From NCBI GenBank assembly GCA_964562615.1, contig CAZLUD010000002.1, positions 153,300-217,299 of the forward strand: a stretch of 64,000 bases of DNA, given 5' to 3'. The DNA is from an uncultured Candidatus Saccharibacteria bacterium (GTDB taxonomy: Bacteria > Patescibacteriota > Minisyncoccia > Phycocordibacterales > UBA12088). This document shows, one piece after another, positions 4,543-31,176 of the stretch (positions are counted from its first letter, which is position 1; every line of letters starts with the position of its first letter). The notes beneath the pieces are model-generated. The model was not told the DNA's origin, did no database searches, and saw nothing but the letters and a program-made list of their open reading frames with translations. The translations under genes were made by a program, and so were the position numbers.

Positions 4543-7500
4543 CTACTCACCTTTTCTGAAGGTGCGTCCCTTTTGCTTTTCAATAAAGTCTACCACTTTC
4601 GCGATAGCAATTTTTGCGCCTGTTTGTGAGTGGCTGTAGGTATAGTCAACACCACCAGAGAGGATTTCAATGATGTGTTCAAGCTCACCATTGCTCCAGA
4701 TAGCCGTTACCTCAAGAAGATCACGATTTGCGCGTCTTCCGCCCTCGATTCTGTTTTTGAATACATCATCAAGCTCGGTAACTACCTGCATAAGGAAGTT
4801 TTGCGCGTCATAGCCTTGGCCTGCAAGCTTTCTCAAGAAGTTGAATGACTTCTCTTCTTTGCCCTCAGCGAGCCATGAGATAAAGGTTGCGATCGCTGAA
4901 ATAGTAGTCAATCCTTCATGTGATGATGAGACCGCTCGCTCGTGTCGTGGCTCGCTGTGCGGCGTGACATGAGCAGAGAATCGTTCACGTGGCATCTGGT
5001 TCTGTGAGGTAGAACGATTGGTACCATGATATCCATCTCTATCTCTAGAATATCGTTCAAGAGAGAATCTATCAGAAGCAACTGCTGATGCCTGTGGCGC
5101 AGCTGGTGCATACTCTTCTACTGCTTTATCAGTAATGGTGTCAGCTGGTGCTTCTACTACTGTTTCTTCTGTAGTAATAGACGCAGGTACATCATGAGCA
5201 ATTTCTGTATCTCGTCGAGTCTCTCTCGTATCTCGCGCACCGTCAATATCTCGTGTTGCAATACGAAGTGCTTGTATGCGCTCACGGTTAAGCGGTATCC
5301 ATCCATCTTCACGTGGATATAGTTTCTTTGCAGCAAGAATCATTTCTTCAAGAAGCATACGTGCCTTTTGCTCATCACTATCAGAGTACGCAACAATCTG
5401 CGCAAGACCTTCAGGAGAAACAAGAACATCTGATTCATACGCGGTCTTCTCAAGCACTCCTTCAAGATATCTATCTGCAATTGCCTCCTTGTGCCACAGA
5501 CGATCAGCTGGAACAGCTGGTGCCTGTGCTTGAGCAGCAAATTGCATAGTGCCTGTTGGAAGATTGTGAGGCGGGTTGTTTGTTCGAGTTACCGGTGCCT
5601 CAGCGCGTGGCGCATGAGTAGGCGCTGGCATGTATCGTGGCTCTTCAGGTGACACATGATGTGAGTGTGCATAGTGATTATGTATCTCTTGTTGAGGCGC
5701 TCGTGGATATTCAGTTGCTGCCTCACGTGGGCTATCTACGTATCGCATTTTTTCTACTTCTCGCTCATCGAGGTATTCTCCCGCTCGTGTAAACGCGACG
5801 CGAATAAATCGGTGGAGATACTGCCTCACGATAAGGTAGTGCGTCATGATACCGGTTACCACAAGTACAGTAAGCCAGAAGAAGAAGGTAAGCAGTGGGC
5901 CAGCTTCAAATCCTGTGTACGGCACTTGAGAAAGGTACACGAAAGCAAGCGGTTGATCAGTTGGAGGCGTAATAGAAGGTGGGGTGGTTGTTGACGCGAT
6001 AGTCACTCTTGGTGGGTTAAGCCCACCGCCGCCTCCACAATTACCGTTAGGACATAGTGGTTGTAGGTCTATTCGTGCCGTACAGGTAGTAGTACCAAAT
6101 TCACCACTAAATACTCCGGTATATAGCTTGCTACTGTTTGCCACAAACTTTGCTGATCCAGACACACTCACATCATTAAGATCAGGCGTGATAGTGGTCT
6201 TGGTTACATTAGTACCACTCCATGAAAGTGTTACTTCAGTATTTTGACCTTCTACAACACGATTAGGTGTAATAGACATCTCACAGACTGGCACCTTGTT
6301 AGGTACAGTCACCGTTGCCTGACAGGTTACCACTGCGCCCGTTGCGCCTGTTGCAGTAAGGGTGTAGGTGGTGGTTTGTGTTGGTGTTACTTGTGTTGAG
6401 TTATTAGCAGTTACTGAACCGATACCCTTATCAATAGATATAGAAGTTGCTCGTAGGGTTGTCCAGGTAAGCGTTGCAGCATCACCGGCTTTTGCAAGTG
6501 TTTGAGGCGATGCGACAAGCGTACAGAATGGTGGGTCAATTGGAGTTTCTACCGTCACTGTTACCTTACAGGTCACGGTCTTTCCCTTTTCACCAGTAAA
6601 GGTACCCGTGTACTCGGTAGTAACCTCAGGTGAGACTACCTTTGAACCATTAAGCGCGATAGCGCCAATACCAGAATCTATACTTGCACCAAAGGTGTTT
6701 TGACTTGTCCACGTTATGGTTGCGCTCTCGCCTTTCTTTATCGTTGATGGTGCTACGCTCATTGCACAGACAGGATCTTGTGGCTCAGGTAGTTTTTCAA
6801 AGGCAGCACACAACGGCACGATATCGTTAGTAGATGATGCGTCTGGGTACGCAGCATGGACAGCGACCGCAGTCTTGGTGTCTTGTGATATAACCAGTTC
6901 GCTATTTACTACTGATACATCGTAATCTTTTGTATCAGCAAGATCAGGTGATGCATTTGTAGAAACAATAGTTGATCCAACCAAGTCACGCAATTTTACA
7001 AACCACTGCTCTTTTGGCTCGGTAACGATGGTTCTGTCAGTGTGATAGTCAAATGACGCAAGCGTTACTTTGTAGGTACCTTTTGCTAGCTCTGCAGGTA
7101 CTGGAGCGGTTTCTGCCGCTGAACCAGACTGATCAGATCGTATCTTACCAGTAGAGAGGTTTACTATCGTTATTCCTTGTGATGGTGAAAGTGGACATAC
7201 CGGCAATGTGTCTTGCTTTACCACAACTGGTGCAGAACACGTGATAGTCTTTCCGTTTTCTCCAACAAAGGTTCCTGTATAGGTAACGTTGGTTGTTGGT
7301 GAAAGATTTTTAGTACCACTTGCTCCTACTGAACCTACGCCATTGTCTATGGTAACTGACGTTACGTTGGTACCATTCCATGTAAGAGTGATGCTTTCAC
7401 CAAGTTTAATAACACTCTTATCTACGCTCATAGCACAGATAGGATCAGGAATTATTCTAAGTTCTCCAAAGTTGTTTCGCTCACTATGATCTCCAGGAGC

Positions 7501-10500
7501 AAGCACGATACTTGAGAACACATCATTTACTGTGTCATTTCCTCCCTTTGTTCCTATTTGATCAAACCAATCTTCATACCCCGCTGGTTGTGACTCAATA
7601 ACGGTATAAGTTCCCTGCTCAAGATTATCAAAGAGATAACATCCATCCGCGCCGGTAGTGGTGGTCTTAGTTACTGCTGAGCCACTTACCGTGGTGCCAG
7701 TAAGAGAGATGGTAGTACCAGGAATTGGTGCATCGTTAGTGTCTTTTACTTTGTTCTTGTTAGCATCAACATATACGCATCCAGATATTTTAGCTGGTGC
7801 AAGGCTCTCTACTCGCTCAAAGAGCGCACAGATTGGAATGATGCTGTTTGGATTGCTGTTTGGATATGCTGCGTGCTTAGCAGTTACCTGTGTGATGGTC
7901 TGGGTAACTTCTAGTCGATCGTTTACCACTTGTGAAAGATAGTTCTGGTCATCAGGAAGATCTCCTATAGTACCGCTCGTACCAAGTGATATAAGTCCAC
8001 CAAATCGAGCAAATGATAGGAACCATTTCTCATCAGGCTGTACTTGTCCTGGCTTTGCTGAGTGTTCATCAAATGAGGCAAGAGTGACTTTGTAGATACC
8101 ACTTGGGATCTCGGTAGTAAATGGACCCTTCTCTGAATTTGCTTTTGTCTGATCTGATCTGATGAGTCCATCACCAAAGTCAATAAGGATTTTATCCGCA
8201 CCGCCAACAAGTGGGCATGTTGGTGTTTGTGGAGGCGGCAAGACAACTATTGGTGCTGAGCAGGTGATTACTTTTCCATTTACTCCAGTTACTGAAGCTG
8301 TGTACGTAGTACTTTGTGATGGTGTCACACTTTGTGATCCATTTACCGCCACGCTACCAACGCCATTATTTATGGTGACGCTAGATGCATTCTCAGTAGT
8401 CCATACCAATGTTGCTACTCCGCCTTGGGTGATTGTGCCTGGGTTAACGGTGAGCGTACACACTGGCTCTGGCTTAGGAGAAACGGTGATTGTAGTACTG
8501 CAAGAAATAGTCTTGCCCTCATTACCTATAAAGGTAGCGGTGTAGGTGGTTGTTTGTGTTGGAGAAACAGCGCTAGAACCATTTACCGCTATAGAGCCTA
8601 CTCCATTATCAATAGAACCACTTGAAGTGTTACTTGAAGTCCATACGAGTGTTGCAGTGCCTCCTGTTTGAATTGAAGATGGGCTTGCAGAAAGCGCACA
8701 TACTGGATTTGGTGTTGGGTTAACCACAATCGTAGTCACACACGTAACACTCTTTCCTGCTTCACCCATAAAGGTTGCCCTATAGGTGGTAGTTTCTGTT
8801 GGCGCTACTGTCTTTGATCCCTGCACCTCTATGCTGCCGATATTGTTATCAAGCGATGCAGAAAGTGCGTGTTGTGATGTCCAGCTAAGAAGTACTTCTC
8901 CACCCTTTGTGATAGTAGTTGGGAAGCCAGTGAGCGTACAAATTGGATCCTTAGGTTCTGGAAGTTTTTCAAATGCTGCACAGATAGGCACGATACTGTT
9001 TGGGTTGCTGTTTGGATATGCTGCATGAGTTACTACTCCAGTTTTTACATCACCGTCTATCTTGAGATTGCTGTTTACCAGCTCCACAAGATAATCTTGC
9101 GTATCAGGAAGGTCTGCAATCGCCGATGTAGTAACTATTGTTGATCCCGTGATAGAGCGAAGCGCAAGTTCCCATGATTCGTTAGGCTGTACTTGTCCAG
9201 GCTTATTGGTGTGATCATCGTACGAAGCAAGGTATACACGGTACGATCCTTGTGGAAGGTTGAGGGCAAATGGCCCTACGGTAGCACTTGCTTGTGATGA
9301 GTTTGCCGTGATGATGTTTGTGGTAATAGGTACCACGGTAAGTCCATCACGTGGTGCAATAGGACACGTTGGCGATGTTGGTGGAGGTGTTACCGTCACC
9401 TTAGCAGAACAGGTAATGGTCTTTCCGTTGGTACCAACAAATGTTCCGATGTAGGTAGTGGTATCACTTGGCGATACTGACTTTGAACCATTTACTGCAA
9501 CTTGTCCTACCCCATCGCTAATTGATGCTGAAGCAACATTTGATGTTGTCCATGACAGTGTCGCAAGACCACCCTTTACTATCGTGCTTGGTGTAATGGT
9601 CATCTGACAAATAGGGTCTGCAAGCGGTACCACCACAATAGTCTGTGAACAGGTAATAACTGAGTTATCTGTACCAACAAATGTACCAGTGTACGTTGTA
9701 GTCTGTGTTGGAGAAACCACCTTGGTGCCAGTCGTAGAAACTGAACCAACACCACCATCTATACTTGCGCTCTTTGTGTTAGTTGAAGACCATGAAAGCG
9801 TAGTAGAACCTCCCACAGAAATAGTGGTAGGGTTTGCCGACATCGTACAGGTAGGTGGCTTTGGAGTATCAGGCAACTTTTTAAAGGCTGCACAGATAGG
9901 GATAATACTGTTAGGTGAAGAGGTATCTGGGTACGCTGCGTGTACCGCCTTTACTGATGAAGCGCTACCTATAGTGAGTGCGGAGTTTACTTTTTGAGTA
10001 AGATAATCTTGTGAATCAGCCAAATCACTTATTGCGTTTGATTGTACTCCGTTGTTTAGCTCAACAAACCAACGTTCGTTAGGTTGCACCTGCCCCACCT
10101 TGTGGGTGTGATCGTCATACGATGCAAGAGTCACGTCGTATTGTCCTGCTGCAAGGTTTACCGCAACTGGTCCCGCAATAGCACTTGATTGGCTAAGGTC
10201 AGAACGTAGTACGGTTGTACCAAAGTTTACAATGGTAGTATCCGCAGATGGAGTGAGCGGACAAGTTGGTCCTGCTACTGGTTTTTTATCAAATGCGACA
10301 CATACAGGCACGACACTATTGTATTTAGTATTCGGCGTTGCGTGGCGCGCGGTTATTTTTGCGATTGGCTCACCAATGAGTGCATTGGTAGCAAAGTTTG
10401 CAGTTACTGATGCTTCTTTTACTCCATCAGCAAGATCTGCGGTTGGTCCATAGGTCGCGATGGTGTTTCCTACTCCATTATATATATCTAGGTACCACTG

Positions 10501-11319
10501 CTCGCTCTTTTGCTCATTTACATTAGTAGATGCTCTATTTGAGTATCCATCATAAGAATACCCAGTGATGGTGTAGTCACCAGACTCTATAGAGACAAAC
10601 TCGCTGTGGCTTGTTGGTGATCCTGCTTGTCCAGCAATAAGACGCACAAACGCGGTGCCGTCTTTAAACTCAACAATAGTTCTTCCCGCTTGTGGAGTAA
10701 GTGGACAGCTAGGAGTGTAAAACTCTGTGCTTGGAGTAGTTGGGGTAGTAGGAGTGGTTGGTGTGGTAGGAACATCAATTCGTTCAAATGATGCGCACAC
10801 AGGATACACACTGTTTGGCGAACCATTTTTATCAAAGGTGACATGCTGCGCGCGTAGCATCGCAATATCGTTTTTGAGTACAAATCCAGTTTCAACCACG
10901 GTAGTTTTGGTGTCTTGCTCTACAAAATCAGCAAGGTCTGAAGTACCCTTTGCCCATTGCCAGGTAGACTGTGCTCCACTTTCAAAACCTATCGAATATG
11001 ATTCGCTAGGTTGCTTTGCAGTTTGTGTTCTTCCGGTGTATCCATCAAATGATACTGCGGTGATTTTGTAGGTACCCTTAGGTAGATTTGTTGCGGCACG
11101 TACATACCCGTCCTCGTAGGTTCCGGTTGAAATGAGCTTCTTTGTTGGAAACGTCACTATAGTAGTGTTTGCTCCCGCAACAAGTGGACATGTTGGAACC
11201 GAAAAATCAGACGTTCCAGTCCCTGTCGCAGAAACTCGGTCAGATGAAAGGATCACGCTCACGGCGGATACGACAATCATCAAAGAAAGAAATGCTGATC
11301 CAATAAGTACTCGTTTCAT
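4543..11319 (-). CDS. giant modular cell-surface protein (2258 aa): signal peptide, repeat modules, VPYTG motif, TM helix, long cytoplasmic tail
   Basis: Uninterrupted 6.8 kb ORF with an N-terminal signal peptide (MKRVLIGSAFLSLMIVVSAVSVIL). Architecture is A-A-A-B-B-A-B-B-B-A-SdrD-B-A-B-B-B. It then has CPNGNCGGGGG, a T/P linker, VYLSQVPYTGF, a TM helix (aa 1808-1831) and a 427-aa tail. Confidence 0.85.
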   Translation of the reverse strand: MKRVLIGSAFLSLMIVVSAVSVILSSDRVSATGTGTSDFSVPTCPLVAGANTTIVTFPTKKLISTGTYEDGYVRAATNLPKGTYKITAVSFDGYTGRTQTAKQPSESYSIGFESGAQSTWQWAKGTSDLADFVEQDTKTTVVETGFVLKNDIAMLRAQHVTFDKNGSPNSVYPVCASFERIDVPTTPTTPTTPTTPSTEFYTPSCPLTPQAGRTIVEFKDGTAFVRLIAGQAGSPTSHSEFVSIESGDYTITGYSYDGYSNRASTNVNEQKSEQWYLDIYNGVGNTIATYGPTADLADGVKEASVTANFATNALIGEPIAKITARHATPNTKYNSVVPVCVAFDKKPVAGPTCPLTPSADTTIVNFGTTVLRSDLSQSSAIAGPVAVNLAAGQYDVTLASYDDHTHKVGQVQPNERWFVELNNGVQSNAISDLADSQDYLTQKVNSALTIGSASSVKAVHAAYPDTSSPNSIIPICAAFKKLPDTPKPPTCTMSANPTTISVGGSTTLSWSSTNTKSASIDGGVGSVSTTGTKVVSPTQTTTYTGTFVGTDNSVITCSQTIVVVPLADPICQMTITPSTIVKGGLATLSWTTSNVASASISDGVGQVAVNGSKSVSPSDTTTYIGTFVGTNGKTITCSAKVTVTPPPTSPTCPIAPRDGLTVVPITTNIITANSSQASATVGPFALNLPQGSYRVYLASYDDHTNKPGQVQPNESWELALRSITGSTIVTTSAIADLPDTQDYLVELVNSNLKIDGDVKTGVVTHAAYPNSNPNSIVPICAAFEKLPEPKDPICTLTGFPTTITKGGEVLLSWTSQHALSASLDNNIGSIEVQGSKTVAPTETTTYRATFMGEAGKSVTCVTTIVVNPTPNPVCALSASPSSIQTGGTATLVWTSSNTSSGSIDNGVGSIAVNGSSAVSPTQTTTYTATFIGNEGKTISCSTTITVSPKPEPVCTLTVNPGTITQGGVATLVWTTENASSVTINNGVGSVAVNGSQSVTPSQSTTYTASVTGVNGKVITCSAPIVVLPPPQTPTCPLVGGADKILIDFGDGLIRSDQTKANSEKGPFTTEIPSGIYKVTLASFDEHSAKPGQVQPDEKWFLSFARFGGLISLGTSGTIGDLPDDQNYLSQVVNDRLEVTQTITQVTAKHAAYPNSNPNSIIPICALFERVESLAPAKISGCVYVDANKNKVKDTNDAPIPGTTISLTGTTVSGSAVTKTTTTGADGCYLFDNLEQGTYTVIESQPAGYEDWFDQIGTKGGNDTVNDVFSSIVLAPGDHSERNNFGELRIIPDPICAMSVDKSVIKLGESITLTWNGTNVTSVTIDNGVGSVGASGTKNLSPTTNVTYTGTFVGENGKTITCSAPVVVKQDTLPVCPLSPSQGITIVNLSTGKIRSDQSGSAAETAPVPAELAKGTYKVTLASFDYHTDRTIVTEPKEQWFVKLRDLVGSTIVSTNASPDLADTKDYDVSVVNSELVISQDTKTAVAVHAAYPDASSTNDIVPLCAAFEKLPEPQDPVCAMSVAPSTIKKGESATITWTSQNTFGASIDSGIGAIALNGSKVVSPEVTTEYTGTFTGEKGKTVTCKVTVTVETPIDPPFCTLVASPQTLAKAGDAATLTWTTLRATSISIDKGIGSVTANNSTQVTPTQTTTYTLTATGATGAVVTCQATVTVPNKVPVCEMSITPNRVVEGQNTEVTLSWSGTNVTKTTITPDLNDVSVSGSAKFVANSSKLYTGVFSGEFGTTTCTARIDLQPLCPNGNCGGGGGLNPPRVTIASTTTPPSITPPTDQPLAFVYLSQVPYTGFEAGPLLTFFFWLTVLVVTGIMTHYLIVRQYLHRFIRVAFTRAGEYLDEREVEKMRYVDSPREAATEYPRAPQQEIHNHYAHSHHVSPEEPRYMPAPTHAPRAEAPVTRTNNPPHNLPTGTMQFAAQAQAPAVPADRLWHKEAIADRYLEGVLEKTAYESDVLVSPEGLAQIVAYSDSDEQKARMLLEEMILAAKKLYPREDGWIPLNRERIQALRIATRDIDGARDTRETRRDTEIAHDVPASITTEETVVEAPADTITDKAVEEYAPAAPQASAVASDRFSLERYSRDRDGYHGTNRSTSQNQMPRERFSAHVTPHSEPRHERAVSSSHEGLTTISAIATFISWLAEGKEEKSFNFLRKLAGQGYDAQNFLMQVVTELDDVFKNRIEGGRRANRDLLEVTAIWSNGELEHIIEILSGGVDYTYSHSQTGAKIAIAKVVDFIEKQKGRTFRKGE
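4546..5826 (-). other. predicted cytoplasmic tail of the giant protein (aa 1832-2258)
   Basis: It follows the single TM helix. The TM-proximal flank is rich in Arg/His (VRQYLHRFIRVAFTR). Two helical-looking segments are separated by P/A/R/E-rich, apparently disordered linkers. Confidence 0.5.
5911..5925 (-). other. VPYTG sortase-signal-like motif (aa 1799-1803) immediately before the TM helix
   Basis: Codons gtg ccg tac aca gga read on the minus strand. The position relative to the hydrophobic helix mimics LPXTG-type sorting signals. Confidence 0.45.
6061..11190 (-). repeat. intragenic protein-module repeats: 6 A modules (about 135 aa) and 9 B modules (about 80 aa)
   Basis: A modules: 10780-11190, 10285-10707, 9865-10263, 8956-9366, 7804-8217, 6784-7197. 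B modules: 9385-9849 (x2), 8239-8940 (x3), 7216-7437 (x1), 6061-6768 (x3). Recurrent strings are CPL..TIV, HAAYPNSNPNSIxPICAAFEKLPEP and C..S..P..I..GG.ATL.W.S.N..S.SID.G.G.V...GS..VSP...TTY...F.G..GK..TC. Confidence 0.85.
7462..7788 (-). other. SdrD B-like / Cna-B-type domain inside the giant protein (aa 1178-1286)
   Basis: ISGCVYVDANKNKVKDTNDAPIPGTTISLTG...TGADGCYLFDNLEQGTYTVIESQPAGYE...NNFGE matches the SdrD-B-like pattern (G.V..D.N.N...D......G..V.L......T...G.Y.F..L..G.Y.V). Confidence 0.7.
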
Positions 11320-11402: not shown

Positions 11403-12167
11403 TTATCTTGAGAGCGGATAACTTCCAACAAAATCTGCCTCTACAATAAATCGGTCTTGCTTTGTACCAAACGAATTGCACGTCGCAAGGGTAAGGCGCT
11501 TTCTGTCATTCGTGAAGTCAACACGAACATCAGACGCCTGATCCATACGCACCGCCACTACCTTGTATATATTTTCCTGAGAGCCGTTCTGCACCTTTAT
11601 AAGTGCCCCCTCAGTAAGCTTGCCAATATTATTAAACGCCTTGAAATTTTGGTTTCTAATATTTGGCAATCCTGATGAATGAGCAAAAATAAACATGTTG
11701 CCATTGTCTATCATGCTTCCTGACCCAGGAAATCGAACCGCTCCATATAGGAGTGCGCTATCAAGGACTTCAATGTCTCTTGAGAGCGGATTTTTAACCG
11801 CTACATCAACACCGATATCATCGATGATGATGCGAGTTGGTTTATCAGCAACCGACACCTTTGCCTCCATTGATGCAACTGGGTCGATATATACCCCTGT
11901 TGTTTGCGCAACTCTTTCAGACGTCTGTGCTGGTGTTGGAGTTGACGCTGTAGCTGGTGGCGCTGCCTCAACAAACGTAACTGGCACAAGACGAGAGCTG
12001 AGGGTTACGGTAACTTCTTCCTCTGGTAGCTGCTCTAAAACTTCCTCAGTAGTAATTGTTGTTTCTTCAACCATTACTAGTTCAGGATAAAAATCAATTT
12101 TAAAGAGCAGTATCCCCAACAACGCAAAAATAAGTGCAAACACTCCGATATATTCAAAGATTCTCAT
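11403..12167 (-). CDS. sortase family transpeptidase (membrane-anchored)
   Basis: TM anchor (IGVFALIFALLGILLF). Catalytic triad context is present: His in MFIFAHSSG, Cys in RLTLATCNSF (tgc at 11478-11480) and Arg in KQDRFIV. Start chosen at MRIFEY (12165-12167), because the longer ORF to 12278 overlaps the divergent gene. Confidence 0.8.
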   Translation of the reverse strand: MRIFEYIGVFALIFALLGILLFKIDFYPELVMVEETTITTEEVLEQLPEEEVTVTLSSRLVPVTFVEAAPPATASTPTPAQTSERVAQTTGVYIDPVASMEAKVSVADKPTRIIIDDIGVDVAVKNPLSRDIEVLDSALLYGAVRFPGSGSMIDNGNMFIFAHSSGLPNIRNQNFKAFNNIGKLTEGALIKVQNGSQENIYKVVAVRMDQASDVRVDFTNDRKRLTLATCNSFGTKQDRFIVEADFVGSYPLSR

Positions 12168-12372
12168 GGTTGATGAGGCGCTTCGAAGATTATCATTAGT
12201 GAGTCTATTACTCATGCAAGTGAGGAGTTCAAAGACCAAAAGCGTGTTGACGCATGGCGACAACAGACTACTAGTCACCCGTATATACTACCCCAGATTA
12301 TTGACAAAGTCAAGTTTCCGTGTCGGTCTTCCTTTGTCAGAAATATACGGGTGGTGGTACCATATATATACT

Positions 12373-13500
12373 ATGCAAACACATTCCCCGAAGCCAAAAT
12401 TACCAAACACCCTTCTTACAAGAGACACTGTAGAAAAAGTAGTACTCTACACCGCAATAACTGGAATTGTAGTACTTGCGATTGCCCTTTTTGGTGCTGC
12501 CTTCATAAAAATCCCTACATCAATTCAAACTGCTGCGGTAGAAATTAGCTCGGTGTTTTATCCTGCAGATACTCGTCTACAACTTTCGCTTGAAAGTAGA
12601 TACGTAGAGAACGGTGTCCCTCTTACCCTTTCATGGAGCGCGCCTGCCACTGATATTCCGGGATCATTTTTGTTTGCTTACAAATGCGCACAGGGGCTTA
12701 CCGTGTTTATGGAAAACAGAGATGGTGAGTACGAACCAATTAATTGCGAACAACCAACCGAACCATTAGTAAGTGGCAATCAAGTACGCATTCGCCTCAC
12801 CTCTACTGAAAACCGTTTTCTTGATGTACCCCTTGCGGTTGCCTTTTACCCTGAAGGCGATCCATCACCACTATTTTTCTCACGTGCGTTAGTAACGGTA
12901 GAAAATCCACGCATTGCATTTAGTCCTTCTTTGAGGCCAGATGGCACTGTTGCAACATCAACTACCCCAGATACACCGACACCGCCTGAGACCACCACGC
13001 CTACCCCACCTGCAAAAAAACCTACCGAGCAAACAACACCGCGACAGGGTGCTAGCACCTCAGAATCATTCCAGATTCCTCGCATCGATGGATCTGCGCA
13101 AACCGCCCCTCGTACCCTCACCGGAAAAAGTGATCTGTCAGTAAAAATAATGAATGTAGGATACATTGACGATGCAACAAAAGGATTTGTTATCACCAAT
13201 ACCGTTGAAAAAAACAATGTCAGCGCAGTTATGTTTGCCGTTGAGAACACAGGTACCAATTCATCAGGTTCGTGGGACTTTGCTGCAATACTTCCTACAA
13301 ATCCTCCTTACATATTTCAATCACCAACACAAAGAGAGCTTCTTCCTGGTGAAAGAATTGAATTCACCATGGGCTTTGACCGAGTAAAGGAAGGCGCATC
13401 TTCAGTTGAAATAAAAATCAATATCGACCCTTCACAAAAAATCTCAGAATCAAACGAGACAAACAACTCTACCATCGCTACGATTGGTATCCGTAACTAA
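12373..13500 (+). CDS. membrane-anchored surface protein with C-terminal CARDB domain (paralog 1)
   Basis: N-terminal TM (VVLYTAITGIVVLAIALFGAAF), a conserved about 170-aa domain, a T/P-rich linker and a CARDB-like end (SDLSVKIMNVGY...DPSQKISESNETNNS). Start taken at MQTHSPK (12373). Confidence 0.7.
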   Translation: MQTHSPKPKLPNTLLTRDTVEKVVLYTAITGIVVLAIALFGAAFIKIPTSIQTAAVEISSVFYPADTRLQLSLESRYVENGVPLTLSWSAPATDIPGSFLFAYKCAQGLTVFMENRDGEYEPINCEQPTEPLVSGNQVRIRLTSTENRFLDVPLAVAFYPEGDPSPLFFSRALVTVENPRIAFSPSLRPDGTVATSTTPDTPTPPETTTPTPPAKKPTEQTTPRQGASTSESFQIPRIDGSAQTAPRTLTGKSDLSVKIMNVGYIDDATKGFVITNTVEKNNVSAVMFAVENTGTNSSGSWDFAAILPTNPPYIFQSPTQRELLPGERIEFTMGFDRVKEGASSVEIKINIDPSQKISESNETNNSTIATIGIRN

Positions 13501-14101: not shown

Positions 14102-14130
14102 TTGACATTACTAAACGAGCGTGTTACTAT
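14102..14130 (+). promoter_or_regulatory. sigma70-like promoter TTGACA-17-TACTAT for CARDB paralog 2
   Basis: TTGACA at 14102-14107, a 17-nt spacer, TACTAT at 14125-14130. It lies inside the 5' extension of ORF 14102..15364, which argues for the downstream ATG at 14195. Confidence 0.5.
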
Positions 14131-14194
14131 GCTCCCGCATCAAGTAGTCGGTGCACACAGACCAATTATTCGTTTCGTATTATCAGTATTCATT

Positions 14195-15364
14195 ATGAAT
14201 CAGCAATATCAGAATCCGGGAGATGTGCAGGTAACCATCGAGCACCGCTCAAAGGTTGAAAGAGCAATAACACGCGCACTAGCAGTTATCGGCGTCATTG
14301 CCATTGTCGTTATTGTTATATGGGCAGGGCTTATGGTGGTTCGATCACTACCAACCGCAATTACCGCAGTACAAAATGCTGCCGTAGGACTTACTCAGGT
14401 GTTTTCACCAAAGAAAGAAGAGGCTATTAGCCTTTCAATGAGCACGCTTGTTGCTCGATCTGGTGCTCCATACACCATTGCGTGGGGACACACTACTACT
14501 GAGTCAACTGGCACCTATGCCCTTACCTACTCATGTAGAGATGGACTTTCAGTAGAATCACCTAATACTGATGGTACCTACCAGAGCGCATTTTGTGATA
14601 CTCCATTTAACTTTGCACGATCAAATAGCGAGATTCGCATTGTGCCTACATCAACACAAAATAGATACCTTGATGTACCAATGACCATCTCATACTTCCC
14701 TGAAGGAGCATCAACTCCAACAGTACAGAAGACATTCGTCATGACCATTGAGAATCCATCTGTATCGGTAAGTCCAAGTACTACTGGTGGAACAGTAGCA
14801 ACATCAACTGCCGCTACAAGCACACCAGTCACCACACCGACTACAACTACTCGCCCTACTACAGGCACCACACGACCAACGGGGACAACCACCGTTACCC
14901 CAGGCACTCGTACAGACAATACCTACCAAATTCCTGGTACTGGTGGCAGTACTCCTGGAAGCACTACCGCAAAACCTATCAATCCTAACGGAAAGCCTGA
15001 CCTTGCTGTCAACGTACTAGACGTTGGATACATTGACGCTGCTACCAACAAGTTTGTTGCTGCAAGCTCAGTAAACCGAAGTGAGCGAGTAGCAGTACGA
15101 TTTGAAATTGAGAACAAAGGAAACAATGTCTCAGACTCATGGATGTTCAGCGCGATACTTCCTACCTATCCTCCATTTGTATTCCAATCTCAAACGCAAC
15201 AGAAGCTAAATCCTGGTGAGAAGATTGAATACACCCTTGGATTCGATAAGGTAGCAACTGGAAACTCAGTAGATCTAAAAATATTTGCTGACCAGAGCCT
15301 CAAGATTAACGAATCTAATGAGGAGAACAACATCAAGATTGTTACTATCAACATCAGAGACTAG
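14195..15364 (+). CDS. membrane-anchored surface protein with C-terminal CARDB domain (paralog 2)
   Basis: Same architecture as 12373..13500: TM (ALAVIGVIAIVVIVIWAGLMVV), shared blocks (NRYLDVPMTISYFPEG, ENPSVSVSPS), a T/P linker and CARDB (KPDLAVNVLDVGY...DQSLKINESNEENN). Confidence 0.7.
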   Translation: MNQQYQNPGDVQVTIEHRSKVERAITRALAVIGVIAIVVIVIWAGLMVVRSLPTAITAVQNAAVGLTQVFSPKKEEAISLSMSTLVARSGAPYTIAWGHTTTESTGTYALTYSCRDGLSVESPNTDGTYQSAFCDTPFNFARSNSEIRIVPTSTQNRYLDVPMTISYFPEGASTPTVQKTFVMTIENPSVSVSPSTTGGTVATSTAATSTPVTTPTTTTRPTTGTTRPTGTTTVTPGTRTDNTYQIPGTGGSTPGSTTAKPINPNGKPDLAVNVLDVGYIDAATNKFVAASSVNRSERVAVRFEIENKGNNVSDSWMFSAILPTYPPFVFQSQTQQKLNPGEKIEYTLGFDKVATGNSVDLKIFADQSLKINESNEENNIKIVTINIRD

Positions 15365-19634: not shown

Positions 19635-20798
19635 TTAATTAAACAGGGCAAGATACTCGCCATACCCCTCCTTTTCCATATCGCGCGTAGGAATAAATCT
19701 AAGCGCCGCACTGTTCATGCAATATCTAAGTCCCCCTCTGTCTTTTGGACCATCTGAAAACACGTGCCCAAGATGAGAATCTGCAAATCGTGAACGCACC
19801 TCGGTACGTGTACTAAAAAATGATGAATCATCTTTTGTCACAATAAAGAGAGGGTCTATTGGCTTAACAAATGATGGCCATCCCGTACCCGAGTCATACT
19901 TATCCCTCGATGAAAACAGCGGTTCCCCAGACACCACATCAACGTATATACCCTCTTCTTTGTTATCTGCATACTCATTTGCAAACGGTTTTTCTGTGCC
20001 ATCCTTTTGCGTTACTTTGTATGACTCCGGAGAGAGCATTCCTTGTAGTTCTGTATCACTTGGTTTTACAAAACTAGACCATGCGGTGGTAGTGGTAGGC
20101 ATATATTCTGGTGATATGTTATGTAATGTGTCTCCCCAGTACTTCTTTATAAAGGCATCTCTCCCTGATGCGTTTCTATAAAAACCGTATCTGAGTGCGT
20201 TTTCTTTATAGTAATTTTGGTGATACTCCTCAGCGGTATAAAAAGGTGCACGTGGCAATACCTCAACGGCAAGCGGTTTTTCATACACCTTTTGCGCATC
20301 TATATGCGCAAGCACGCGCATGGCAGTGTCTTTTTCATTTTCATCAGCATAGTATATCGCTGGTGAGTATGCCTTTCCTCTATCATGAAAGGATCCATCT
20401 TTATCAGTTGGGTCAATGTGCTTTATAAAATACTCAAGTAACCCCGCATAGGTGAGGACTTGTGGATTATAGGTAACCTCTACCACCTCTCTGTGGTCAT
20501 CTTTGCTGTACGTCTCGTAGGTAGGATTGCTACTAGTACCGCCACTATACCCCGACACCACACTCGCTACTCCATCTAGTTTTTCTAGATCTGCCTCTAC
20601 GCACCAAAAGCATCCACCCGCAACAATAGCAGTGCGCATATCAGAAGCTGAGTTAGTGGTGTGAGAAGTAGTATCCGAGAGCGGCATATCTTGTGTAGTA
20701 ATCATAGAAAAATTGTGTGTATAAAAATAAATACTGATGCCAACCACAACACACGCTACCGCCAGTATAATGCGTTTATTCATGGCTTGTCTTTTCAA
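19635..20798 (-). CDS. msrAB: bifunctional methionine sulfoxide reductase MsrA/MsrB with N-terminal membrane anchor or signal
   Basis: [11 protein letters not shown] (MsrA active site) and [13 protein letters not shown] (MsrB active site). N-terminal hydrophobic segment [17 protein letters not shown]. Confidence 0.9.
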
Positions 20799-24768: not shown

Positions 24769-27114
24769 TTATCTAACGGTATGTCCTAGACTGGTGAGTG
24801 TGTTAGTGATGGCGGTCATACGCTCAAGAATTTCACTATCGGTAAGTGTTTTGGTGCGAGACAAAAACACCAATCGATACGCGTATGATACCTTGCCTTC
24901 CTTTTCAAATTGATCAAACAAATCAATGCGTGCAAGCAATGCTCCTGCCTGTGTACGAATTATGTCTTCTATCTCAAAAGATGAGACCTCATTAGGTACC
25001 CATAGGGCAATATCTCGAAGGGCAAATGGATACTGAGATATAGGCTGATATCGCACGTCATCAGTCTCTTTCAAAAAATCATACGCGACATCTTCGGGTA
25101 TAGTGACATCAGTAATGTCATACTCCACTACGTTGTCTGATTGATGTACCGCGGCGATATCACCTATCACTTCTTGTATACTCTCTGCACCTTCTTCAAG
25201 CATGGTGCGTAGTGTCGCTTCTCGCTTTTTTTGTGTTGTTTCAGCTGCGTATGCAACATGAAGCCGCTCTCCTTCTTTACTAAAGACAATACCAATTTCA
25301 AATATCATAATGTCACTACCTCCCCACAATGGCGCGTGCGGGAGATTCTTTTTTGCCGTAAGGGCGAGTGTCTCGTGTAGTGATTCTCGCAAATGTGATT
25401 TGTCTGAGGCAAGCGCGTTTTTAAGTTCTACCGCTCCTTTATCAAGTAGCGTAGAGGTGATGACTTCATTCCATCCACGTGCAACAAACGCTGCGCGAAG
25501 TCGGTGTGCAATATAGTGATGTGGGTGCGGTACAACCGGCCCATCAAATGGTGGTAACGTGGCAGATGCAATTGCTCGATATCCAGCTATTCTTCCAATC
25601 TCCTCAATAACATCTTCTCTGATACGGATGTCTCTGCGTTCAGCAGGTACAGCAATAACAAATCGCTCATCCTCAGTACCCAACCCCAACATAGAGCGGT
25701 ACCCAACAATGGTAGTAAATCGCTCACTTGTTTGTAGTGGTTCCATCACCACACCGCTACCACCTGTGGAGTGGAGCACCATACCATCTCCCATATAGAT
25801 ACCAACATGATCAACACCAACGGGGACCTTGGTACCCTTTTTGTATTCGATGCTTTCGTAATGAATGGTACCAACACCGGTGTTCGCAAACACCAAATCA
25901 CCAGGCTGAGGGTCAGTGACCTCTGTGCCAAACACATATTGATCTACCGACATACGTGGGATAGCAACCCCACTCATTGCGTACACATATGCCGTAAGTG
26001 ATGAACAATCAAATGTCTCTGGCGCATCGTACCGTATACGCGCGCCAAGCTTGTACGCCTTACCAAGGAGTGTTGGTGCATGCGCGCAGATATGCTGACG
26101 CGGCGCTATTACTTCAAAAGGAAGCTGCGCCCTTGTGAGTAAGGCAACTACTTCTTCTTTGGTGTACGACGTACCAAGGAGTGCATGTATCTCACGCAGT
26201 GAGACGCCTACTTTGTAGGGTGCAGGTAGAGGTACTTCTTGTATCGCCTCACCCACAAGCGTACCCGAAGCTATATCCATAATAAGAGAAACCACTTCAC
26301 GAAGGGCAATGGCAGTGAGTTCGATTGGTGGTTGGTTTTGAAAACGAACAGACGCATCAGTAGCAAGCTTTAATCGTTGTGAGGTTGCGCGTATTGATGC
26401 GTAGTTAAAGTGCCCCGCTTCAACCAAAATAGTTTTTGTGTTTGTATCCACCTCTGCGTGCTTGCCGCCTTTGACGCCTGCTATCCCTATTGGAGTGCTT
26501 GTCACCGCATCATAGATTAGCAGCGTGTCCTTGTTTAGCGTGTAGGTATCACCCGTAAGGGTGGTGATAGATTCGCCATCTTTTGCAGATTGAACCGCTA
26601 GGTTGTACTTCCCTTGTTCATCTTTACCAAGCTTGTCTGCATCAAATGCATGCAGTGGTTGTCCAAGCTCATACATGACATAGTTTGTCGCATCTACGAC
26701 ATTATTGATGCTTTTTTGTCCAAGACGAGTAAGATACTGCCGCAGCCACTCGGGCGATGGTTCAACAGACACCCCTTCAAGAAGCGCTATACGATATGAA
26801 TCACACAGTGAAGGCGACTCAACCGCAACACGCACTCTATCTGTAGCAGGTAGTAGTTGCGGGTGTGGTTGTCGTAGTGGATCTTTTACAAGTGGTATCG
26901 AGAGTATTACAGAGAGCTCACGAGCAATACCAAGGTGACACAGGCAATCACCTGATCTGTTTGCAAGTACATCAACATCAATTATGTCATCGCCATCAAC
27001 ATGAGCTACTCCCTCAATTTCAAATGAGTGAAAGGTGAGTAGTTCAACAAGCTTCTCGCTTGATGGAAGCGTGTCGGCAAAATAGGTCTGAAGCTGAGCG
27101 CGAGAAACTTTCAT
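24769..27114 (-). CDS. pheT: phenylalanyl-tRNA synthetase beta subunit carrying an inserted NlpC/P60-like domain
   Basis: B3_4 region (NNVVDATNYVMYELGQPLHAFD), B5 halves (SLREIHALLGTSYTKEEVVALL ... VPAERRDIRIREDVIEEIGRIAGY) and a C-terminal FDX-ACB-like end. No N-terminal tRNA-binding OB domain. Confidence 0.92.
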   Translation of the reverse strand: MKVSRAQLQTYFADTLPSSEKLVELLTFHSFEIEGVAHVDGDDIIDVDVLANRSGDCLCHLGIARELSVILSIPLVKDPLRQPHPQLLPATDRVRVAVESPSLCDSYRIALLEGVSVEPSPEWLRQYLTRLGQKSINNVVDATNYVMYELGQPLHAFDADKLGKDEQGKYNLAVQSAKDGESITTLTGDTYTLNKDTLLIYDAVTSTPIGIAGVKGGKHAEVDTNTKTILVEAGHFNYASIRATSQRLKLATDASVRFQNQPPIELTAIALREVVSLIMDIASGTLVGEAIQEVPLPAPYKVGVSLREIHALLGTSYTKEEVVALLTRAQLPFEVIAPRQHICAHAPTLLGKAYKLGARIRYDAPETFDCSSLTAYVYAMSGVAIPRMSVDQYVFGTEVTDPQPGDLVFANTGVGTIHYESIEYKKGTKVPVGVDHVGIYMGDGMVLHSTGGSGVVMEPLQTSERFTTIVGYRSMLGLGTEDERFVIAVPAERRDIRIREDVIEEIGRIAGYRAIASATLPPFDGPVVPHPHHYIAHRLRAAFVARGWNEVITSTLLDKGAVELKNALASDKSHLRESLHETLALTAKKNLPHAPLWGGSDIMIFEIGIVFSKEGERLHVAYAAETTQKKREATLRTMLEEGAESIQEVIGDIAAVHQSDNVVEYDITDVTIPEDVAYDFLKETDDVRYQPISQYPFALRDIALWVPNEVSSFEIEDIIRTQAGALLARIDLFDQFEKEGKVSYAYRLVFLSRTKTLTDSEILERMTAITNTLTSLGHTVR
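25669..26109 (-). other. NlpC/P60-like cysteine peptidase/acyltransferase-fold insertion in PheT (aa about 336-482)
   Basis: GKAYKLGARIRYDAPETFDCSSLTAYVY (Cys370), PGDLVF, DHVGIYMGDGMVLHS (His436, His448). The canonical NlpC/P60 motif order and catalytic residues are intact. Confidence 0.7.
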
Positions 27115-29911: not shown

Positions 29912-30409
29912 CTATGCTTTAGGGGTTGCGTTTATTTCTCTCTCTGCTCGTTCTGCAAAAGCAAGAAAATCTGCTATCTCTTCTACTGTCATTGTTTTTG
30001 GTGTGTCACCCTTTATACAAAACACTCCCACTGCTTTGCCTGTTGCCTGATCATACAAAGACTTACCCGCATAAAATCGAACATACGGCTCTCCTAACAC
30101 CATAGGATTATCTTTGAAACGATCATCCAATAGCGTGTCGGGGACTACAAGCATTACTTCAGAAATAAGCGCATGTCCACAGAATGAGGTTGCTCGTGGT
30201 GCCTCCTTTTCAGTAAGGCCTTGTACGGATTTGTACCATTCTCTACCCTCATCAACTAACGTAATGGTAGATATGGGGACAGAAAATCTTGCCACCGCCT
30301 CTCTGGTTATTCGATCAAATCGCTCTTCATTTGAGGTATCAAGTAGTGATAACCCATGAAGTGCACACAAACGCTCCTTCTCATCCCTTGGTAAAGGTGC
30401 ATGTAACAT
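29912..30409 (-). CDS. stand-alone GAF domain protein
   Basis: EKERLCALHGLSLLDTSNEERFDRITREA...REWYKSVQGL...TSFCGHAL...DDRFKDNPMV...VRFYAG is a classic GAF sensor pattern. Confidence 0.8.
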   Translation of the reverse strand: MLHAPLPRDEKERLCALHGLSLLDTSNEERFDRITREAVARFSVPISTITLVDEGREWYKSVQGLTEKEAPRATSFCGHALISEVMLVVPDTLLDDRFKDNPMVLGEPYVRFYAGKSLYDQATGKAVGVFCIKGDTPKTMTVEEIADFLAFAERAEREINATPKA

Positions 30410-30535: not shown

Positions 30536-31045
30536 TTAGTCGACAACTATCTCTACCCCAACAAAAAACAAAACATTTTTATTAGTATCTAAAATGGGTG
30601 AAATCTGTAGCGTCACATTATAAAACTGACCATCCTTTCTCCTGTTTGCGATATTAAGGGTTATTGGGGATTTGTTCGCGATCATCACTGACCACGCCTC
30701 ATCATAAAATTCTTTTGGCATGTGCCCTCCCCAAAGCTCAGACGGTCTTTTACCGATAATCTCTTGTATGGGGTACTGAGTAGCTTCGACTACTGCATTG
30801 TTAACAAACATAATTGCTCCTGTGCTATCAGTGATGATGACTTGCTCTTTCATGGTCTCAAACACACGATTAAGCGTGCCACATCGCAGGCACTTTATCT
30901 CAGCACCATCAAGGCCATGATGCTTTGCTAACAACTTACCGCACTTCATACACCGAACATCTTTAAGTACAGATGGAAGAATGTCTGATGTGGCTACGGA
31001 TGGGTTGTTCATAGGCGAGTAACCACTATATGGTATACCAACCAC
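30536..31045 (-). CDS. Com-like zinc-ribbon fused to a PAS domain
   Basis: CMKCGKLLAKHHGLDGAEIKCLRCGTLN (CxxC...CxxC), then a PAS-like segment IITDSTGAIMFVNNAVVEATQYPIQEIIGKRPSELWGG...RRKDGQFYNVTLQISPI. The start is uncertain (31045 or 31012). Confidence 0.65.
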   Translation of the reverse strand: MVGIPYSGYSPMNNPSVATSDILPSVLKDVRCMKCGKLLAKHHGLDGAEIKCLRCGTLNRVFETMKEQVIITDSTGAIMFVNNAVVEATQYPIQEIIGKRPSELWGGHMPKEFYDEAWSVMIANKSPITLNIANRRKDGQFYNVTLQISPILDTNKNVLFFVGVEIVVD

Positions 31046-31100: not shown

Positions 31101-31176
31101 TGGAGCCAGCAGTCAGATTCGAACTGACGACCTGCCGCTTACAAGGCGGCTGCTCTACCAACTGAGCTATGCTGGC
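31101..31176 (-). tRNA. tRNA-Thr (anticodon UGU), CCA encoded
   Basis: The reverse complement folds as a cloverleaf: acceptor GCCAGCA/TGCTGGC, D stem GCTC/GAGC, anticodon stem GCCGC/GCGGC with loop CTTGTAA, T arm GTCAG-TTCGAAT-CTGAC, discriminator T and CCA. Total 76 nt. Confidence 0.9.

Follow-up and report, generated by a model that had tools for sequence, protein, structure and literature searches.

Gene locus and module layout

The window analysed here is a 64,000-nucleotide stretch of DNA from an uncultured Candidatus Saccharibacteria bacterium (GenBank assembly GCA_964562615.1, contig CAZLUD010000002.1, positions 153,300–217,299 of the forward strand); coordinates are counted from its first letter. 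A single open reading frame (ORF) on the minus strand (4543–11319) was translated into a surface protein of 2258 residues, in which a cysteine-bounded module of about 135 residues, here called the A module, occurs six times. All copies share one frame of this ORF: module 1 lies at 10780–11190 (residues 44–180; domain E 2.8e-41 with a profile hidden Markov model, HMM), module 2 at 10285–10707 (residues 205–345; E 9.8e-40), module 3 at 9865–10263 (residues 353–485; E 3.6e-48), module 4 at 8956–9366 (residues 652–788; located by the HMM scan and used for modelling with AlphaFold2), module 5 at 7804–8217 (residues 1035–1172; E 6.5e-46) and module 6 at 6784–7197 (residues 1375–1512; E 9.1e-49). When the 64-kb window was scanned in six frames with the HMM, exactly these six copies were retrieved, at domain E-values from 1e-39 to 1e-49, and no seventh copy was found anywhere in it. 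Each copy opens with CPL or CPI and carries its second cysteine, within P[IVL]C, about 129 residues further on. The copies align over 137 columns with 29–53% identity to module 4, and 15 columns are invariant among them, including C1, P2, G40, Y42, D50, E63, D85, L86, D88, H114 and C129. The blocks SYDDHT.KPGQVQP.E.W, DLPD.QDYL and HAAYP.S.PNSI are present in modules 3–6 (module 3 being of the 'DDH..K' subtype) and are recognisable but divergent in modules 1 and 2, which carry SFDGYTGR.. and SYDGYSNR.. respectively and belong to a divergent S[FY]DGY..R subtype. An earlier note on this DNA had described six cysteine-bracketed copies with these ends and shared internal blocks, and the description was borne out.

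Between the A modules lie nine immunoglobulin-like (Ig-like) stalk modules, here called B modules, located at 9409–9849 (B1 and B2, residues 491–557 and 571–637), 8260–8940 (B3–B5, residues 794–860, 874–940 and 954–1020), 7237–7437 (B6, residues 1295–1361) and 6082–6768 (B7–B9, residues 1518–1584, 1599–1666 and 1679–1746; B7 gave a weak match to Pfam Ig_ADGRF3), all on the minus strand. They too are cysteine-bracketed, as the note had it, with 66–67 residues between the cysteines and a mean pairwise identity of 46%. One prealbumin-like stalk domain of the SdrD_B or CnaB type was recognised at 7540–7791 (minus strand, residues 1177–1260; PF17210, E 2.4e-13). With the N-terminal signal peptide (SP; 11224–11319, minus strand, about residues 1–32, beginning MKRVLIGSAFLSLMIVVSAVSVILSS... 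as read from the translation), the order of modules is SP-A-A-A-B-B-A-B-B-B-A-SdrD_B-B-A-B-B-B, and the protein ends in a VPYTG motif with a transmembrane helix and a tail of 426 residues. The 'fixed grammar' that the note had proposed for A and B modules is only approximate as far as this order goes, but the spacing is regular: the linker from cysteine to cysteine measures 12–14 residues at 13 of the 15 module junctions. Nearly every module of either kind is bounded by two cysteines, and the 34 cysteines of the protein are arranged in pairs; an oxidoreductase of the Dsb or VKOR type was looked for in 20 ORFs of the window, to which the scan was limited, and none was found. Straight after the last B module (6037–6081, minus strand, residues 1747–1761), two extra cysteines and a glycine run were observed (LCPNGNCGGGGG). 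This CPNGNCGGGGG segment, which is unchanged in an orthologue of 93% identity, leads into a Pro/Thr-rich linker and then into LSQVPYTG.

Anchor, tail and sortase

The LSQVPYTG sequence is followed by a transmembrane helix and basic residues (5824–5928, minus strand, residues 1798–1832), an anchor resembling a sortase signal, and then by the cytoplasmic tail (4546–5823, minus strand, residues 1833–2258). A sortase gene (PF04203, E 1.5e-16) lies directly upstream of the A-module gene on the same strand (11403–12278), and with this adjoining gene the PYTG motif looks like a variant of the LPXTG signal. Its ORF begins with a GTG at 12278 and overlaps at this 5′ end the opposite-strand CARDB gene at 12166–13500; because of this overlap, and since homologous sortases measure 268 and 225 residues, the true start probably lies further downstream than the listed GTG. 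The pair of sortase and A-module protein is found again in a more distant genome (homologue locus L005, with a sortase of 53% identity), where ThrRS and DnaE lie on its flanks just as they do in the window, and at L007 a sortase is encoded two genes upstream of the A-module gene; no sortase was found in the flanks of homologue loci L003, L006, L008 and L009.

Two conserved folded domains (residues about 1950–2025 and about 2137–2255) with a disordered linker between them make up the window tail, which had no Pfam or PDB sequence match; by fold comparison it resembles domains II–III of clamp loaders. Among the best 149 homologues of the protein, the signal L.Q[VIL]PYTG[FV] with a transmembrane helix precedes a tail of 200–460 residues in 28 and a short tail in four more, while in 21 a short tail follows an LPXTG-like signal. 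The cytoplasmic tail is kept in at least 28 of the 149, always after [LVI]PYTG and a transmembrane helix. To find a folded cytoplasmic domain behind a sortase-type signal is unusual, and cleavage at VPYTG, if it occurs, would split the ectodomain from the folded cytoplasmic domain.

Family assignment and distribution

The six A modules of the window gave no match in Pfam-A, even at E<=10, and when 66 diverse A modules were scanned singly, scattered chance matches were obtained, none of them significant. NCBIfam returned no match for two A modules or for the whole 2258-residue protein, and profiles of the 6 and of the 66 diverse A modules found no match among PDB sequences. With the whole protein, Pfam recognised only SdrD_B and related prealbumin-like families (residues 1177–1260) and a weak Ig family. 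In the precomputed Pfam annotation of the homologues, which derives from a newer release (recognisable by PF26918 and PF27535 among its families), the A regions are blank and only Ig-like or stalk families, or none, are assigned. PF26918, assigned on homologue P0157, was rejected as a Pfam family of the A module: it is Ig_Eae, and its faint match fits the B modules. The names of members in their source records ('hypothetical protein', 'Ig-like domain-containing protein', 'DUF11 domain-containing protein', 'uncharacterized repeat protein (TIGR01451 family)' and 'peptidoglycan/xylan/chitin deacetylase') all describe regions of the proteins outside the A module. In every library searched the A module is without assignment, in agreement with the earlier note, which knew no domain family for it; the result that by the note would undo its claim of novelty, a confident match of the module's profile to an adhesin or carbohydrate-binding module (CBM) family already described, was sought and not found.

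For the size of the family, an HMMER profile of the six A copies and one homologue was run exhaustively against 1.84 billion cluster representatives (50% identity). This retrieved 1158 protein clusters at E<=1e-3, 774 at E<=1e-10 and 163 at E<=1e-30, and the repeat is therefore far beyond chance. A word-indexed protein search had returned a single homologue when run with the profile of 6 modules and no homologue with that of 66, which reflects its limit of sensitivity rather than rarity of the family. In the best 149 homologues, the A module is present once (79 proteins), twice (59), three times (9) or four times (2), and the six copies of the window protein exceed every one of them. Once defined, the A family would supply an annotation for hundreds of surface proteins now listed as 'hypothetical'.

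Most matches are unnamed metagenome proteins, and the named sources may cover only part of the range: an uncultured Candidatus Saccharibacteria metagenome-assembled genome (MAG), Candidatus Campbellbacteria, a 'Patescibacteria group bacterium', two unclassified 'bacterium' MAGs and a Candidatus Woesearchaeota archaeon. The archaeal homologue (L003; contig JBKHAC010000005.1, 10001–13888) is a protein of 1295 residues with three A modules, encoded on a contig that also codes for TFIIE-alpha and the Lhr helicase. Its locus was recovered in two independent assemblies (L003 and L004), which together with these two archaeal genes argues against a binning artefact, and the A module appears to cross the boundary between bacteria and archaea among ultrasmall lineages. 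The neighbouring archaeal genes for proteins of 2020 and 291 residues had no Pfam match; the 291-residue protein, encoded upstream of the homologue, was considered as a sortase and rejected, as no similarity was found.

Homologue architectures and sequence constraint

An N-terminal hydrophobic segment was found in 118 of the 144 complete homologues. The first A module starts at median residue 70 and lies within 60 residues of the N-terminus in 67 of these 144. Partner domains in the 149 homologues include DUF11 (renamed CLIPPER), DUF7507 (CLIPPER_2), SpaA_2, DUF7619, PKD, He_PIG, SdrD_B, cadherin-like, fn3, VWA, SLH and PG_binding_1. The family members are secreted, with A modules usually N-terminal, ahead of stalk domains and of sortase-type or transmembrane anchors. 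CLIPPER-type domains, stabilised by isopeptide bonds, form stalks of fibrillar adhesins, and a canonical fibrillar adhesin runs from signal peptide to adhesive domain, stalk and anchor (PMC12617251). Family-wide, the A module would thus occupy the place expected of the adhesive domain, as read from these architectures.

A syntenic orthologue of the whole window protein, the 93% identical protein mentioned above, was found in an uncultured Candidatus Saccharibacteria MAG (L002); a search for related loci with the whole protein returned no other. Between the two proteins, 23 of 824 residues differ in the A modules (2.8%) and 40 of 605 in the B modules (6.6%), while 26–34% are changed in the signal peptide and the cytoplasmic linkers. 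The lower rate of change in the A modules is consistent with their being the functionally constrained part.

Structure prediction and residue conservation

Module 4 was modelled confidently with AlphaFold2 from an alignment of seven sequences only (pLDDT 87.9, pTM 0.83). The model has eight beta-strands (9–13, 29–37, 40–49, 65–70, 76–79, 92–103, 107–114 and 124–134) and one short helix, and shows the beta-jelly-roll (galactose-binding-domain-like) fold that characterises CBM6, CBM35 and CBM36. Foldseek returned weak matches only, to the fibre subunit Ena2A, birnavirus VP2, CBM6 and TNF-like domains (best TMq 0.57), and the model points to a known kind of fold without a close solved relative.

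Conservation was counted in 227 full-length A modules from 147 proteins. Cys1 and Cys129 are present in all of them (100%), followed by G40 and Y42 (99%), D85 (98%), H114 (96%), E63 (93%), D50 (89%), and Q60 and S124 (87% each); D88, N123, P127 and the aromatic positions 65 and 117 are conserved at 63–82%. The conserved polar residues map to the loops 50–64, 80–91 and 115–123 of the module 4 model. From the strand order, each of these loops is predicted to connect one strand to the next, antiparallel one, and all three to lie at the same end of the sandwich, where most of the conserved polar residues would converge. The Ca2+- and sugar-binding loop site of CBM36, CBM35 and CBM6 sits at the corresponding end. 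The cysteine pair is invariant and is retained in homologues with a single module as well. Its simplest reading is a disulfide within the module, which would tie the N-terminus to the last strand.

Relation to described domains and surface proteins

The nearest structural comparison is with the galactose-binding-domain-like jelly-rolls of CBM36, CBM6 and CBM35, of which PDB 1ux7, 7ay3, 1uxz and 2w46 are examples. With these the A module shares about 10% identity, Foldseek TM-scores are 0.4–0.5, and neither Pfam nor PDB profiles gave a match; among the Pfam matches listed for the 6 window modules and the 66 family modules there was no CBM family, even at E<=1–10. The invariant cysteine pair at the N- and C-terminal ends is not a known feature of CBM6, CBM35 and CBM36, and these modules are carried by glycoside hydrolases, whereas the A module is carried on adhesin stalks (Polysacc_deac_1 accompanies it in two of the 149 homologues).

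The endospore appendages called Ena offer another parallel. An Ena subunit is a small jelly-roll with N-terminal cysteines for the disulfides that link separate subunits in an extracellular fibre, and the top Foldseek match of module 4 was to such a subunit (PDB 9i0y, E 2e-4), but with a TMq of 0.31 and 14% identity. No Pfam match linked the A module to Ena or DUF3992. Ena disulfides bridge subunits, whereas the A modules of the window protein are part of a single chain to begin with, and both cysteines are still present in homologues with one module. Homology to Ena fibres was ruled out by the TM-score of 0.31.

With fibrillar adhesins the window protein shares a signal peptide, repeated stalk domains and a surface anchor in one long chain, and the partner domains of its homologues (DUF11/CLIPPER, DUF7507/CLIPPER_2, SpaA_2, SdrD_B and PKD, with LPXTG-like signals) are those of fibrillar adhesins. 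The adhesive domain of the latter is usually distal to the anchor; in the family the A module is N-terminal in one or two copies, and in the window protein it is interspersed six times. A fibrillar adhesin stalk is stabilised by isopeptide bonds, whereas cysteine pairs would take the part of stabilisers in the window protein. Like LPXTG sortase substrates, the latter has a pentapeptide (VPYTG), a hydrophobic helix, basic residues and an adjoining sortase gene, but where such substrates end in a short charged tail it has 426 residues with two folded domains; in some homologues the tail after VPYTG or LPETG is of the usual short kind. The isopeptide domains of CnaA, CnaB and CLIPPER type have a conserved lysine, an Asn or Asp and a catalytic Glu or Asp in an Ig-like fold, in contrast to the jelly-roll A module, which has no conserved lysine. 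In Thr/Ser-Gln ester-bond domains, Thr or Ser and Gln side chains touch one another beside His and acidic residues; S124, Q60, H114, D50, D85 and E63 are conserved in the A module and might form such a set, and the known ester-bond domains differ from it in fold. In its proposed working the A module resembles a CBM36- or CBM35-type module or a fibrillar adhesin's adhesive domain, and no sequence test places it in those families. Taken with the sequence searches, the A module would be a new family among the extracellular jelly-roll binding modules of fibrillar surface proteins, not something categorically new.

Interpretation of the A module

Saccharibacteria live attached to Actinobacteria. 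Little is known of the means by which ultrasmall episymbionts, bacterial or archaeal, recognise their hosts and stay attached to them, and most of their large surface proteins are without annotation. In one Saccharibacterium in culture, host glycans have been suggested as the targets of essential envelope proteins that contain glycan-binding domains (PMC10633639).

The explanation of the A modules that is favoured here, and is given an even chance of being right, is that they are disulfide-stapled, lectin-like and possibly Ca2+-assisted adhesive units of a sortase-associated fibrillar surface protein; that they are adhesive is the more secure part, their binding of carbohydrate or metal the less secure. 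By its model the A module is an eight-stranded beta-jelly-roll of about 135 residues, probably closed by a disulfide between Cys1 and Cys129, the latter in the last strand. Its putative site would consist of D50, Q60, E63, D85, D88, H114, N123 and S124 with the aromatic positions 49, 52, 65 and 117 and, by strand topology, would lie at one end of the sandwich, in the three loops named above. By analogy with CBM36, CBM35 and CBM6, the site would probably hold a metal ion (Ca2+), a sugar of the partner cell's envelope glycan, or both. Six such units on a cysteine-clamped Ig-like stalk, made of the B modules and one CnaB-type domain, could provide a multivalent grip on a repetitive envelope polymer of the partner cell. 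In each module the disulfide would join the N- and C-terminal segments, so that tension would be carried mainly by the short linkers and the S–S bonds, and the disulfides together with the Pro-rich linkers of 12–14 residues may make the chain resistant to force and proteases. The cysteine-closed chain would be a disulfide analogue of isopeptide-stabilised stalks and an alternative to them in adhesins. The earlier note had proposed a ligand- or metal-binding fold, not a simple spacer; the proposal finds indirect support in the jelly-roll model, whose nearest solved relatives are Ca-dependent CBMs, in the conserved polar loop residues, in the N-terminal placement and in the smaller change in A than in B modules. 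The A module offers a concrete, expressible candidate for host-binding work in cultivable Saccharibacteria.

Several observations weigh against adhesive, lectin-like units. The structural likeness is generic, the jelly-roll matches being weak (best TMq 0.57, and 0.31 for Ena2A, the top match); no sequence relation to any CBM family was found with Pfam or PDB profiles; and Polysacc_deac_1, a carbohydrate-active catalytic domain, occurs in only the two homologues noted above. The A modules of the window protein are interspersed along the stalk rather than placed at its tip, and the proximity of Cys1 to Cys129 and the clustering of the conserved residues were deduced from strand topology only. 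The polar residues, being near-invariant across divergent members, would fit a structural metal, catalytic or cross-linking role equally well. What speaks most strongly against a host-specific ligand site is the near-invariance of this polar set across very divergent members, the archaeon included; such a set would fit a metal site, the specificity then coming from variable loop segments.

The same acidic residues could hold a purely structural Ca2+ in a bead of the stalk, where with the disulfide they would only stiffen and protect the chain, and binding would take place elsewhere or nowhere. The interspersion of six A copies with B modules at regular linkers agrees with such a bead, as do the near-invariant Asp and Glu residues, which are typical of structural Ca sites in folds of the CBM6, CBM35 and CBM36 type. 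Across the family, however, the A module is present mostly once or twice and near the N-terminus, before the genuine stalk repeats; it is more strongly conserved than the B modules, and its conserved His, Gln, Ser, Tyr and aromatic residues exceed the needs of a simple Ca site. A mere stalk bead is considered unlikely. Adhesion to a protein, within the same architecture, would require as ligand a host surface protein, a pilus, an S-layer or, in self-association, the fibre itself. Many fibrillar adhesin tips bind proteins, as is commonly accepted, and protein-binding domains of the TNF/C1q-like kind and of viral capsids share the jelly-roll with the Ena fibre subunit, all of them among the Foldseek matches; the adhesin architecture itself has been described (PMC12617251). 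Protein rather than a glycan or metal as the ligand is considered unlikely.

A broader version of the lectin-like reading would make the A module an attachment domain common to episymbionts of the Candidate Phyla Radiation (CPR/Patescibacteria) and of DPANN, recognising a shared envelope feature through its invariant metal or polar site; in the subfamily of the window protein it would be coupled through the sortase-like VPYTG and transmembrane helix to a cytoplasmic clamp-loader-like (AAA+ lid and collar) oligomerisation domain. If this were true, the protein would be an organised device for attachment, possibly with a signalling or clustering role, and not a passive fibre, but the proposal as a whole is distinctly unlikely. 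Chemistry within the module was also weighed, either as an ester-type cross-link formed by its Ser, Gln, His, Asp and Glu residues or as a small active site directed at envelope polymers. Ig-like folds of the CnaA or CnaB type, not jelly-rolls, are found in the known cross-link domains, and the A module already has its invariant cysteine pair; an isopeptide bond is excluded by the lack of a conserved lysine among the 227 modules, and in Pfam searches no enzyme family was connected with the module by sequence or by profile. An autocatalytic or enzymatic module is judged very improbable. Finally, a beta-sandwich might extract or shuttle host lipids for a lipid-auxotrophic episymbiont, an idea that is scarcely credible here: the conserved residues are charged or polar and sit in loops rather than lining a hydrophobic cavity, and the likeness is that of a generic beta-sandwich.

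Other genes in the window

Divergent from the pair of sortase and A-module genes, two CARDB-domain proteins of 444 and 420 residues are encoded on the plus strand (12166–13500 and 14102–15364), which are probably further envelope proteins. A fusion of MsrA and MsrB with an N-terminal extension of about 55 residues (19635–20798, minus strand) may be directed to the envelope. The PheRS beta chain (24769–27114, minus strand; B3_4, B5 and FDX-ACB domains) contains an NlpC/P60 insertion at residues 351–463 (E 8e-16), and a domain of this cell-wall peptidase type inside a PheRS beta chain is an unusual fusion. A small protein with a Mu Com-like zinc ribbon and a PAS domain is encoded at 30536–31045 (minus strand), adjoined by the gene for a stand-alone GAF-domain protein (29912–30409, minus strand), and a tRNA-Thr lies at 31101–31176.

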